NCBI GenBank assembly: GCA_951406725.2
Contig: OX597815.1
Coordinates: 122,264,001-122,328,000, forward strand
Reading direction: 5' to 3'
Length of the DNA stretch: 64,000 nucleotides
DNA from: Octopus vulgaris
Taxonomy: Eukaryota
Part shown: piece after piece, positions 36,901-64,000 of the stretch
Numbering within the stretch: the stretch's first letter is position 1
Layout: every line of letters starts with the position of its first letter
Program-made: the position numbers

Positions 36901-38345
36901 AGAATAGAAATGAATATATACCTATATTTTTCTGAGGTTGTACAGGTTCTGCTGACTCTAAAGGCTGACTTACTCCTTCTTCATTAAATGCAGAAATTCT
37001 GAAATAATATTCGGTGTCATCTCTAAGGTCAAAAACAGTTAATTTGGTTGTTTTACCATCAGTTTCACCAACTTTGACCCATATAGGTCGGGCTCTAGCT
37101 CTCATTTCAATGATATAGCCAAGCAATGGAGACCCTCCATCTGATCTTGGTGGATTCCAAACAACATCACAGAACCTATCTGATACATTATCATATACCA
37201 CTGGTCCCAGTGGAGATGTTGGTTTACCTAAAATATCAAGAAAAATTATTTTTAAAAATTATAAAAAAATAATGAGAAAATTGTTAGAAATAAATGTACA
37301 AAACTGAATATTATAGAATGTTTCAAGTAGTGAAAACCTACCAAATGGACTTTTGATCTTTGTTGTTAAATCAGTAACAAGAGGATCACTGTTACCAACT
37401 CTATTGACAGCAGTTACTCGGAAATCATATTCAGTGTCTTCAGTCAAGTCTTTAATATTATAAGATGTTATATTTGCATGTACACGATCAATTTGACTCC
37501 AGAATGATCGAATAGACTCTTTCTTTTCAAGTATATAACCTGTGAGAGGTGAGCCACCATCATCTTCAGGAGCATTCCAGCTGATACTGGCAGAGTTTTT
37601 GAGGACATCAAATACTTTGATAGGACCTCTTGGTATGGATGGAATAGCTGAATAAATAAATATGAGAAAGAAACCATAAATATTAATACATAGTTAATAA
37701 AATATATAAACAAGAACAGAAAGATGGAAAAACTATTTTGTACTATACTACATTTCTGATATTGTTTTGCTTAAAAACATATATCTACATGAAAAACATA
37801 CTTTAATGAATTTTAAGCTTATAAAATTATGAACTACTTAATATATGCAATTTTAATTATGTTCTTGAAATTAAATAAGAAAAAACATACCTAAAGGTCG
37901 TTTTGGTGTAACTGCATGATCAGCATCACATGGCTTGCTTAAGCCTACTGAATTTTCAGCACAGACAGAGAAGTAGTAATTAACATTTTCTCGCAAAGCT
38001 TTTACAGTGTATGTATGTTCATATGCACTGACTGAAGTTATTTTCTCTCGGTCTTCATAAATATCAAAACGTTTATAAATTACATAGTCGGTAATCTTAG
38101 ATCCACCATCTGAAATAGGTGGTCTCCATTCTAAAACTGCAAAATCTGGTCCTATTTTGGTAGCTCTTAAGTGAATAGGAGAGTCTGGGATATCTGAAAT
38201 TGAAAAGAAGTAATAGTGAATTAACATGAAAAATATACATTTATTTATGCCTAATAAACTCTTTATCTACTTCTTTCTTTCTCTTGCTCCAAATGCCCAC
38301 AAATATATACATATATTTATACAAGCACATATATTCATACATGTA

Positions 38346-38401
<56 letters not shown>

Positions 38402-61600: not shown

Positions 61601-64000
61601 TAGTTATTTATACCTTTGATACTAAAATGATTTATAAACATAAAATTGTTTCTTTATACAGGAACATATTCTAATCAAAAAATATTTTTTTACATGAATA
61701 GATATTTATGAAATATCAATTAGCTTACTTGACTCCTTTTTGGGAACAACAGGTCCAGGCATTTCTGCCAGTTTACCGCTGCCCTTCTTATTTTCAGCAC
61801 ATACAGCAAAGTAATATTCTTGGCCTTCTTCCAGATCTGTCACCTTACAATTTCTTTCATTTCCATCAACAGTCATGAGTTTTTCCCAATCAGATTTCTT
61901 ATCTTTCTTCATTTTGATGGAATACTTGAGGATTTTAGAGCCACCATCATCATGTGGTGTTCTCCATTCTAAGGTAACATGTGATTTTCCTAATTTACTA
62001 TATCTAAAGTCATAAGGTACACCAGGCACATCTGAAATAAACAGAAGGCAAATCAAAATCCAAACTAAATACAGATTTTTAAAAATATTATGCTAAACTA
62101 TGAGATAAACTATAAAACATATAAAAAACATGAAATATAATTAAAATTATTTCTTTTTACATTCAATGATAAACAATAAAATATGTGTTGACTAGTTAAT
62201 AACAAAATTACTTTAGAAGAAAATGTATAACTTACTTATGTCTCTAGTTGGTGTTGCAGACTCTGTTGTCTCCAAAGGTTGACTTTCTCCCTCTTCATTA
62301 ACAGCAATCACACGGAAGTAATATTCAGTTCCCTCAACTAAACCAAGAACTCTGGCAACAGTACATTTGGGATCAATTTCTTCTGCTTTGAGCCACGACA
62401 CACGTGCAGCAGATCTTACTTCAACAATATATTTAGTGAGAGGAGTGCCTCCATCACTGTCAGGAGCTTTCCATTCAAGATCAACATAGTCATAAGAGAC
62501 TTTGGTAATATCAAGTGGCCCTTTAGGACGAGATGGTACACCTAGAGAACACAGAGAAACAATAAAATGTACCACTCCATACATTTATTTGCAAATGTAT
62601 AAACATAAAATTTCAAATACAAAATCAGTTCAAATAAGGAAGATAAGAAATTTAACTTTTTCTCAAAACCAAGTGAAATTTATTAAGCTTATAAAATTTA
62701 TAAAGATTATAAGGTAATCACAAAAACTTTTATGAAGTAAAACGTTACATAATTAGTAACTAATACTACATCAAAAAAATTTTAAGACATTGATTATATG
62801 AGACAATTCAAATATATAACTTACTGAATGAGCTCTTTGCCATTGTTGATGCATCGGTCTCTAATGGATCACTAAGACCAATTTTATTAATTGCAGTAAC
62901 TCTGAACTCATATTCACAGTTCTGTCTCAGATCCTCAACACGGTGGTTGGTCACTGATGGTGCTACCTTAGCCACATTGCTCCAGTATTGTCTATTAGCC
63001 TCTTTCTTTTCAATAATGTAACCAGTGAGAGGACTACCTCCATCATCTTCTGGAGCTTTCCAGGAAATGGAAATAGATGTTTTCTCAATATCATAGGTTT
63101 TCAGAGGACCAATTGGTTTTGATGGTTTTTCTAAAAATACAAAACAGTACACAATGATAGAATAATGTCTCTCAAGTTATACTTACATCAAATACCAAGA
63201 AAGTTTAAGATCTATCAACAAAAATTACACAGTGATATTGAATGTCTTACCAAGAGGTCGCATTGGTGTAACTGCATATTCTGAATTACAGTAAGGACTT
63301 AGACCAACTTTGTTCTCAGCTTGAATACAGAAGTAGTAGGACAGATTCTGTTTCAAGTCTCTCAAATGACAACTGTGTTCAAAAGCTGATACAGTTTTCA
63401 CTTTAGTCTTCACATCAGATGATGTACCACCCATTTCAGATATGATGTAATTGGTGATTTTAGAACCTCCATCTGAATGTGGTTTCTTCCATTCCAAGAT
63501 TGCAAAGTCAGGACCAACCTGTGTAGCTCTGAAGTAAATTGGTGCACTTGGTGGCTCTGAAAAACATTTCCAATAAAATATTTTTAATACACAAAATTCT
63601 CTGATAATCTTTAATATTCTACTGTATGAAGGATAAATACAAAGCTTCTGAAAATCTGAAGACAAAATTCTAATGAGAAATAGATTATTACTCACCAATC
63701 TTCCTCACTGGTTTTGTGACATCAGTAGATTCAAGTGGTTTGCTCTGTCCTTCAGCATTAACAGCAAAGACACGGAAATGGTAACTTGTGTCTTCTGTAA
63801 GATTTGGTACTGTAAATGTGGTAGTTTTCTCATTAACAGTGCCTGCTTTAGTCCAGAAGGTTCTGGAATCTATTCTGTGTTCAATAATGTATCCAGTTAT
63901 TGGTGTACCACCATCATTGGCAGATGGTTTCCAGCTCAAGTCAGCAGAATTATTGGTGACATTTGTGATCTCCAATGGACCAACTGGTGCAGATGGCACA

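Follow-up and report, generated by a model that had tools for sequence, protein, structure and literature searches.

We have identified a nine-domain super-repeat in a stretch of 64,000 nucleotides (nt) from Octopus vulgaris (contig OX597815.1, positions 122,264,001 to 122,328,000), which in its whole length is called the window here. A single minus-strand gene spans the entire window, and the protein encoded there is a rod of Fn3 domains only, with one domain on each phase-1-1 exon. The domains fall into three classes, A, B and C; a triplet A-B-C has been tripled to a nine-domain unit, and this unit was block-copied at least 3.3 times, long ago, as nine exons. What is new is a titin-style super-repeat that consists entirely of Fn3 domains and is built as three times three, in a mollusc. 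We consider it reasonably probable, though by no means certain, that the window is an internal stretch of a giant sarcomeric gene of the titin/twitchin superfamily, whose all-Fn3 rod serves as a scaffold or template of the thick filament.

The window has an N count of 0 and a G+C content of about 32%. A search with a hidden Markov model (HMM) built on the window's own domains gave 58 Fn3 open reading frames (ORFs) on the minus strand (E-values 9e-25 to 5e-44) and not one on the plus strand, and the exons were numbered in gene order from D01 (63696-63999) to D58 (1647-1952). Pfam PF00041 (fn3) is matched by all 58 domains, as it was by 15 of 15 in an initial test. Each domain occupies one exon, with a pyrimidine run and YAG before it and a GTAAGT-like donor after it, and the introns always lie after the first codon base, which gives phase 1-1 throughout. 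The 57 complete exons are all multiples of 3 in length (31 of 306 nt, 17 of 303, five of 300, two of 297 and one each of 315 and 294), and the 29 complete exons from D02 to D30 each measure 306 or 303 nt. As the gene continues past both ends of the window, it may have Ig domains in its other parts. Within the window, neither the 58 domain exons nor the ORF at 11793-12440 nor 50 further minus-strand ORFs of at least 65 amino acids contained an Ig domain. The scan of other ORFs, from which low-complexity ones were dropped, also took in the plus-strand reverse-transcriptase ORF; among the 50 minus-strand ORFs, one matched a reverse transcriptase and 49 had no match. No kinase was found in the domain exons or the other ORFs scanned, the 3' end of the gene being outside the window. 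The Pfam scan revealed no nebulin-type module in any scanned window ORF, no actin-binding domain was found among the ORFs and domains scanned, and an Rfam scan of the window gave no matches. The exons and the evidence for each are as follows.

63696-63999, minus strand: D01, copy 1 position 1, class A; HMM and Pfam fn3; 5' end cut by the window end at 64000
63251-63556, minus strand: D02, copy 1 position 2, class B; HMM, Pfam fn3, motif scan
62825-63130, minus strand: D03, copy 1 position 3, class C; HMM, Pfam fn3, motif scan
62236-62541, minus strand: D04, copy 1 position 4, class A, with SYDYVDLEW; HMM, Pfam fn3, motif scan
61729-62031, minus strand: D05, copy 1 position 5, class B; HMM, Pfam fn3, motif scan
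60402-60707, minus strand: D06, copy 1 position 6, class C; HMM, Pfam fn3, motif scan
59198-59503, minus strand: D07, copy 1 position 7, class A; HMM, Pfam fn3, motif scan
58765-59067, minus strand: D08, copy 1 position 8, class B; HMM, Pfam fn3, motif scan
58103-58408, minus strand: D09, copy 1 position 9, class C; HMM, Pfam fn3
56639-56944, minus strand: D10, copy 2 position 1; HMM, Pfam fn3
55371-55673, minus strand: D11, copy 2 position 2; HMM, Pfam fn3, motif scan
54445-54750, minus strand: D12, copy 2 position 3; HMM, Pfam fn3, motif scan
53737-54042, minus strand: D13, copy 2 position 4, 82% identical to D04; HMM, Pfam fn3, motif scan
51431-51733, minus strand: D14, copy 2 position 5; HMM, Pfam fn3, motif scan
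49939-50244, minus strand: D15, copy 2 position 6; HMM, Pfam fn3, motif scan
49452-49757, minus strand: D16, copy 2 position 7; HMM, Pfam fn3, motif scan
48968-49270, minus strand: D17, copy 2 position 8; HMM, Pfam fn3, motif scan
47879-48181, minus strand: D18, copy 2 position 9; 98 of 100 in-frame residues identical to the database protein P0348
47352-47657, minus strand: D19, copy 3 position 1; matches P0348 at 101 of 101 in-frame residues, with its junction residue confirmed
46923-47225, minus strand: D20, copy 3 position 2, class B; 99 of 100 residues identical to P0348; Fn3 model
46078-46383, minus strand: D21, copy 3 position 3; 100 of 101 residues identical to P0348
45094-45399, minus strand: D22, copy 3 position 4; HMM, Pfam fn3, motif scan
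44322-44624, minus strand: D23, copy 3 position 5; HMM, Pfam fn3, motif scan
43390-43695, minus strand: D24, copy 3 position 6; HMM, Pfam fn3, motif scan
42698-43003, minus strand: D25, copy 3 position 7; HMM, Pfam fn3, motif scan
41062-41364, minus strand: D26, copy 3 position 8; HMM, Pfam fn3, motif scan
40449-40754, minus strand: D27, copy 3 position 9; HMM, Pfam fn3
38999-39304, minus strand: D28, copy 4 position 1; HMM, Pfam fn3
37891-38193, minus strand: D29, copy 4 position 2; HMM, Pfam fn3, motif scan
37342-37647, minus strand: D30, copy 4 position 3; HMM, Pfam fn3
32668-37227, minus strand: D31-D36, decayed remainder of copy 4; tree and best matches
14575-32023, minus strand: D37-D57, 21 further Fn3 exons of the same gene; HMM, Pfam fn3
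1647-1952, minus strand: D58, one further Fn3 exon, after a 12.6-kb intron; HMM, Pfam fn3

Identities were computed over the 107 match columns of the HMM alignment, and the lag profile was taken within D01-D30 (37342-63999). Mean identity was 0.590 at lag 9 (n = 21, range 0.45-0.82), 0.568 at lag 18 (n = 12) and 0.540 at lag 27 (n = 3), as against 0.439-0.447 at lags 3, 6, 12 and 15 and 0.313-0.349 at the remaining lags, so same-position domains are more alike than neighbours (0.59 at lag 9 vs 0.34). For all 30 domains the best match lies at lag 9, 18 or 27. Pairs separated by multiples of nine (n = 36, mean 0.578) exceeded the other pairs separated by multiples of three (n = 99, mean 0.443; Mann-Whitney p = 2e-15), and when domains were shuffled within their modulo-3 class the observed lag-9 mean was reached in none of 10000 shuffles (shuffled mean 0.479, standard deviation 0.016). 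In a maximum-likelihood tree of D01-D36, class A comprises positions 1, 4 and 7, class B positions 2, 5 and 8, and class C positions 3, 6 and 9. The nine position groups are nested in these classes, each on one side of a branch, with approximate likelihood-ratio support (SH-aLRT) of 54, 97, 93, 97, 81, 92, 94, 99 and 86 for positions 1-9. They cost 8 changes on the tree, the minimum possible, while label shuffles average 22.4 and were as low in 0 of 200. Considering the lag profile, the best matches, the shuffles and the tree together, we therefore conclude that the triplet was tripled to nine and that the nine-domain unit was then copied as a block.

An earlier note on this stretch had described a nine-domain super-repeat with about 3.3 visible copies between 37342 and 64000, and had suggested an identity matrix or a tree, with diagonals expected at lag 9, as its check. 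Both the identity peaks and the nine tree groups bear the description out, and the interval is exact, 37342 being the low end of D30 and the window end cutting D01. Since the array runs off the window end at D01, 3.3 copies is a lower bound. Copy 2 contains 2742 nt of exon (914 codons) and copy 3 contains 2745 nt (915 codons); the exon lengths follow a 306/303/306 pattern, from which only D18 and D02 (in the cut copy 1) depart, by one codon. Beyond D30, D32 falls in the position-5 clade and D34 in the position-7 clade, and the best match of D31 is D04 (47%). An assembly artefact was considered and ruled out, the copies being 45-82% identical and not near-identical. Tandem Repeats Finder reported only an (AAT)n run and did not see the super-repeat, because the copies are too diverged at the DNA level.

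The sequence signatures that the earlier note had assigned to single positions were borne out, with some exceptions, when the 58 domains were scanned. SYDYVDLEW, DKK..W, NLYE, YRT..R.TW, G..FVE and YDT occur only in the three exons in which they were expected, whereas RQYW and ADHAV.P were each found in three of four expected exons and IYFRAT..G.DF was exact in two of four. PMR.L is present in D02 as well, and GL is unspecific, being present in 23 domains. The count of about 18 differences between exons 4 and 13 agrees with their 82% identity over 101 aligned codons.

With regard to the age of the copies, the 21 lag-9 exon pairs gave a mean nonsynonymous divergence (dN) of 0.33, a median synonymous divergence (dS) of 1.35 and dN/dS ratios of 0.13-0.50; the ratios are rough because dS is near saturation, and in 3 of 36 same-position pairs dS was too saturated to compute. 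Pooled dS was about 1.25 and pooled dN/dS 0.26 over all columns, 0.15 over 43 columns conserved across the family and 0.41 over 32 family-variable columns (bootstrap over pairs 0.32-0.55). At the same 32 variable columns, amino-acid identity was 0.44 for lag-9 pairs, 0.19 for lag-3 pairs and 0.12 for lag-1 pairs. Constraint is unequal among positions, with a mean identity of 0.75 at position 4 and of 0.51 at positions 5 and 8. Residues that are constant at a given position but change from one position to another are concentrated in three groups of columns, 12-22, 44-48 and 99-103. Read against the DSSP strands of a class B model, these groups appear to correspond to strands one and two, to the stretch that leads up to the conserved tryptophan, and to the C-terminal strand plus linker.

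The introns of D01-D30 are 120-2003 nt long (median 469), and none of the 21 lag-9 intron pairs has a blastn match at E<=1e-3, as the earlier note had anticipated when it saw no similarity between matching introns. The lone lag-18 match (introns after D10 and D28) and the lone lag-27 match (after D27 and D54) are due to a dispersed repeat, which explains all intron-to-intron similarity. Based on the dS and dN/dS values and the unalignable introns, the proposal in the same note of old block duplication under selection is supported, the selection being purifying. Such selection has held the domain lengths to within one codon and has preserved position-specific residues. The dispersed repeat itself measures about 150-250 nt and occurs in nine introns, in both orientations, with copies 70-87% identical (for example at about 53217-53436 and 42133-42373; introns after D10, D27, D28, D51, D54, D56 and D57). 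The intron upstream of D12 carries an (AAT)n run of about 36 copies (54761-54867), which reads as a long poly-Ile/Leu frame.

Downstream of the nine-domain array, the A-B-C register continues through D31-D54 (17999-37231, minus strand), where the class score keeps A and C in all 8 domains each, and B in only 3 of 8. This zone has a weak six-domain period, with a lag-6 identity of 0.400 vs 0.374 in within-class shuffles (reached in 3 of 5000), and its lag-3 identity lies below the shuffled mean. The nine-domain period was not found in D37-D57, and the triplet register holds to D54. The gene may thus have two zones with different super-repeats, as titin does. Between D57 and D58, an ORF of 216 codons (11793-12440, minus strand), rich in Y, Q, S and H, lies in a region of 30% G+C; it has a phase-1 acceptor near 12400, its frame ends with TAA, and neither Pfam matches nor Atlas hits were found for it. 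This ORF may be a unique insertion or an alternative last exon. The same 12.6-kb intron contains ORFs for reverse transcriptases (RVT_1) of the long interspersed nuclear element (LINE) type at 3673-5145 (minus strand) and 6109-8241 (plus strand), flanked by long TA/CA-rich simple repeats; the best named relative of the latter is from Argonauta hians (57%).

Database searches, which were carried out exon by exon, provided a check on splicing. The 405-residue protein P0348 corresponds to D18-D19-D20-D21, with 398 of 402 in-frame residues identical, and at all three junctions exactly one residue stands between the exon blocks, namely the residue predicted by the split codon. P0004 (204 residues) joins a position-4 domain, identical to D04 at 85 of 101 residues, to a position-5 domain, identical to D05 at 53 of 99 aligned residues and 55% identical to D14 by BLASTP. 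Its junction residue differs from that of the window, and P0004 is another copy or comes from another species. Both proteins may be gene predictions, and what they bear out is the exon boundaries, without bearing on expression. The single-sequence AlphaFold model of the four-domain P0348 was poor, with a predicted local distance difference test (pLDDT) of 56, and was used neither for fold search nor for length.

The nearest Atlas cluster is mostly molluscan, and the best long relative of the 30-exon profile is LOTGIDRAFT_176120 of Lottia gigantea (P0276, 1631 residues, partial). Like the window gene, P0276 is all Fn3, with 17 domains over its full length in A-B-C order; its precomputed Pfam annotation lists no Ig family, and each domain shares 38-61% identity with the window domain that it matches best. 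On the other hand, it has a period of three only (0.745 at lag 3, 0.668 at lag 6 and 0.567 at lag 9), with no cycle from 1 to 9. Its domains 10-16, in which triplets are 98-100% identical, are due either to tandem expansion in the very recent past or to a record whose assembly is collapsed or duplicated. Because Lottia keeps A-B-C without a period of nine, the triplet is common to molluscs, and the nine-domain order would be, as far as seen, special to this lineage. Other arrays without Ig lack a period entirely or nearly so (Diadema 'twitchin-like' P0277, Littorina P0291, P0280, P0018), and Ig is present in the relatives P0018 and P0385. The exhaustive representative search with D13 was ranked by summed score, which put long multi-Fn3 proteins first, and 34 hits with an Fn3 density of at least 0.8, chosen to omit vertebrate-titin-like entries, were examined; most of them were bacterial-type or distant arrays (33-41%), and only P0004, P0018, P0055 and P0079 were informative. 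Named relatives bear the automatic names titin, twitchin-like and M-protein-like. In the full-text library searched, which mostly leaves aside subscription journals and supplements, no description of an all-Fn3 giant or of a nine-domain super-repeat in a mollusc or other invertebrate was found, and no mention of the Lottia locus tags.

For all three classes, the best sequence matches in the PDB are titin chains of cardiac thick-filament structures (8q6t_I, 8g4l_bm), followed by titin A-band tandem crystals and then by myomesin, MyBP-C and twitchin. E-values were 1e-13 to 1e-14 for single titin Fn3 domains and about 5e-14 for single myomesin domains, and 1e-7 to 1e-9 for chains of NCAM, contactin and fibronectin. 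Class B is the most divergent class, and a model of a class B domain (D20), computed with the 58 domains as alignment, reached a pLDDT of 94.6 and superposes on titin Fn3 structures with template-modelling (TM) scores of 0.86-0.90. Because this confident model superposes on titin Fn3, class B is a true Fn3 and not a hidden Ig. The 58 of 58 Pfam matches, the PDB matches and the TM scores of 0.86-0.90 together place the domains in the sarcomeric Fn3 subtype. The interspersed I-set Ig domains that mark titin and twitchin were absent from the window exons and ORFs scanned.

We also scored the classes on six proteins of the Fn-Fn-Ig (twitchin/projectin) type, leaving out the all-Fn3 P0277. Class C scored best in 21 of 24 Fn3 domains that precede another Fn3, class A in 13 of 23 that precede an Ig, with small margins, and class B in 1 of 47 twitchin-type Fn3 domains. 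Class C ends with K/R-S-P-F/Y (for example in D21, 46078-46383), an ending that resembles the KNPY/F found after the first Fn3 of Fn-Fn-Ig proteins. A C-A-B unit may therefore parallel Fn-Fn-Ig, with a class B Fn3 in the Ig slot.

According to the available text of one study, titin domains are spaced at 3.98 nm in situ, so that 11 domains take 43.8 nm (PMC7427331). At this spacing, by arithmetic, a triplet would measure 11.9 nm, a nine-domain unit 35.8 nm and two such units 71.6 nm. The chain 8g4l_bm has 1084 residues and eight Fn3 matches; it is taken here as one 11-domain unit of about 43 nm, and on that scale the 915 residues of a nine-domain unit would span about 36 nm. In the paramyosin filaments of molluscs the period is 72.5 nm, and a 14.5-nm repeat stands out strongly (PMC12040844). 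As about 36 nm is 2.5 x 14.5 nm, two super-repeats could match the paramyosin period, at five steps of 14.5 nm. In the scaffold that we envisage, blocks would have been copied probably by unequal crossing-over, and the nine positions of a stiff rod would present nine different surfaces, each recurring at intervals of about 36 nm. In the role of a scaffold or template the rod would lie on the thick filament of myosin and paramyosin, like the A-band part of titin, and only every second super-repeat (2 x ~36 = 72.5 nm) would bring its period into step with the 14.5-nm lattice. A role as a ruler is plausible. An extension of this proposal would make the protein an A-band-type all-Fn3 template of cephalopods' or molluscs' own, independent of chordate titin, with a nine-domain zone and then a six-domain zone; a pair of nine-domain units, at about 72 nm, would agree with the paramyosin/myosin period of 72.5 nm, and the rod would help to set the structure or length of paramyosin-cored thick filaments. 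We put this extension forward tentatively and regard it as unlikely in its full form.

Several points weigh against the thick-filament scaffold. Membership of titin or twitchin proper is not established, because the window has neither Ig nor kinase, and expression in muscle is inferred from homology alone. As a possible gene prediction, P0348 supports exon boundaries and not expression. At 3.98 nm per domain, neither three domains (11.9 nm) nor nine (35.8 nm) equal 14.5 or 43.5 nm, and a 43.5-nm register would demand 4.8 nm per domain. The near-saturation of dS limits what the dN/dS values can carry, and the branching order of the copies is inconsistent across positions. Also, Lottia P0276 expands by three-domain blocks, the last triplets being 98-100% identical, so that accidents of recombination, and not a fit to a lattice, may have set the size of the blocks.

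This last point leads to the main rival, an explanation by history only, in which the nine-exon period is a block size copied by chance, folding is what is selected, and the rod is generic or a spring with no periodic partner. The near-identical recent copies in Lottia speak for it, as do the 15 consecutive Fn3 domains of Diadema P0277, which have no period (0.46-0.48 at every lag), the inconsistent branching order, and the copied Ig blocks that also occur in the human titin I-band, as reported in the available part of PMC12198301. However, dN/dS is 0.41 (0.32-0.55) even at the family-variable columns, the copy lengths are fixed to within one codon despite dS above 1, constraint differs strongly between positions (identity 0.75 vs 0.51), and the private residues cluster in columns 12-22, 44-48 and 99-103. 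Considering both sides, we regard history alone as a real but rather unlikely explanation.

The remaining explanations change the place or use of the rod. The actin crossover and the tropomyosin period are about 36-38.5 nm, and the earlier note had accordingly placed a nine-domain unit of about 36-40 nm near the thin-filament repeat. Its arithmetic holds (9 x 3.98 = 35.8 nm, with the spacing of PMC7427331), and catch-muscle tropomyosin paracrystals show a 40-nm period in the available text of PMC12040844, but the link to the thin filament is not supported: all close solved relatives are thick-filament or M-band proteins, the scanned exons and ORFs contain no nebulin-type module or actin-binding domain and the sequence gives no hint of actin, and 2.5 x 14.5 nm fits the same length equally well. 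A nebulin-like thin-filament ruler, with its repeat of about 36-40 nm matching the actin/tropomyosin period, is thus very improbable. We judge it quite improbable that the array is mainly a splicing toolbox, in which nine-exon blocks or single exons are skipped to give rods of different length in each muscle, as in the titin I-band. Such skipping is possible because every exon is phase 1-1 (57 of 57 complete exons, all multiples of 3), and 11793-12440 is a possible alternative terminal exon, but the spliced proteins seen include consecutive exons, in P0348 (D18-D21) and P0004 (position 4 to 5). This use would be compatible with the thick-filament scaffold and not exclusive of it. An extracellular or otherwise non-muscle Fn3 array, such as an adhesion or matrix protein, is scarcely probable at all. 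In its favour, Fn3 arrays are common in extracellular proteins, and NCAM, contactin and fibronectin stand lower in the PDB match list. Against it, these three reach 1e-7 to 1e-9, as compared with 1e-13 to 1e-14 for titin Fn3 and about 5e-14 for myomesin; the nearest folds are titin Fn3 and the named relatives are auto-named titin, twitchin-like and M-protein-like.

The thick-filament reading matters because ordered super-repeats are the main sequence argument for titin templating the vertebrate thick filament. Invertebrate thick filaments have paramyosin cores and widely varying lengths, and a strict, old and selected nine-domain order, with a weaker six-domain zone downstream, makes this gene a candidate for measuring them out. 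If the reading of class B is true, an Fn3 would have taken the place of the Ig in the Fn-Fn-Ig unit.

Among known systems, the A-band super-repeat of titin has in common with the window gene the Fn3 subtype, the best sequence and fold matches, and small tandems raised to super-repeats by block duplication. Both also have three Fn3 classes within tandems, conserved linker lengths and an [N/Y]PF-like linker; in the available text of PMC10665226, titin tandems have A, B and C Fn3 types and an [N/Y]PF linker, to which we liken the class C ending. A one-to-one mapping of the window classes onto the titin types was tried and fails, A and C having the same titin domain as their best match. The titin D-zone has 7 domains and the C-zone 11, three of the latter being Ig, whereas the window gene has a period of 9 (3x3), Fn3 only and no Ig in 64 kb. 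Unlike in the titin A-band, there is one domain per exon, and the predicted period is about 36 nm by arithmetic, as against 43 nm in the titin C-zone. The sole likeness to nebulin, which consists of helical repeats of about 35 residues in sets of seven, is the notion that a super-repeat matches the period of a filament; the module is wholly different. Twitchin and projectin belong to the same superfamily and are thick-filament proteins of invertebrates; the usual description gives them a simple Fn-Fn-Ig repeat, and we know of no description of a higher-order super-repeat for twitchin. The Fn-Fn-Ig proteins are 45-47% identical to D13, but the window unit is Fn-Fn-Fn (C-A-B), with the class B Fn3 in the third slot. 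Twitchin has a kinase, which the gene lacks within the window, and the available text of PMC12040844 gives 24 Ig and 15 Fn3 domains for Mytilus twitchin, against at least 58 Fn3 and no Ig here. Projectin and twitchin are taken as the non-chordate A-band counterparts in the available part of PMC12198301. The copied Ig exon blocks of the human titin I-band, which the same text describes, likewise arose by block duplication of one-domain exons in a giant muscle gene; those blocks are Ig, elastic and spliced into isoforms, and the blocks of the window are Fn3 of A-band type (PMC12198301). The ordered pattern of the window gene thus resembles the titin ruler, while its make-up and its period are different.

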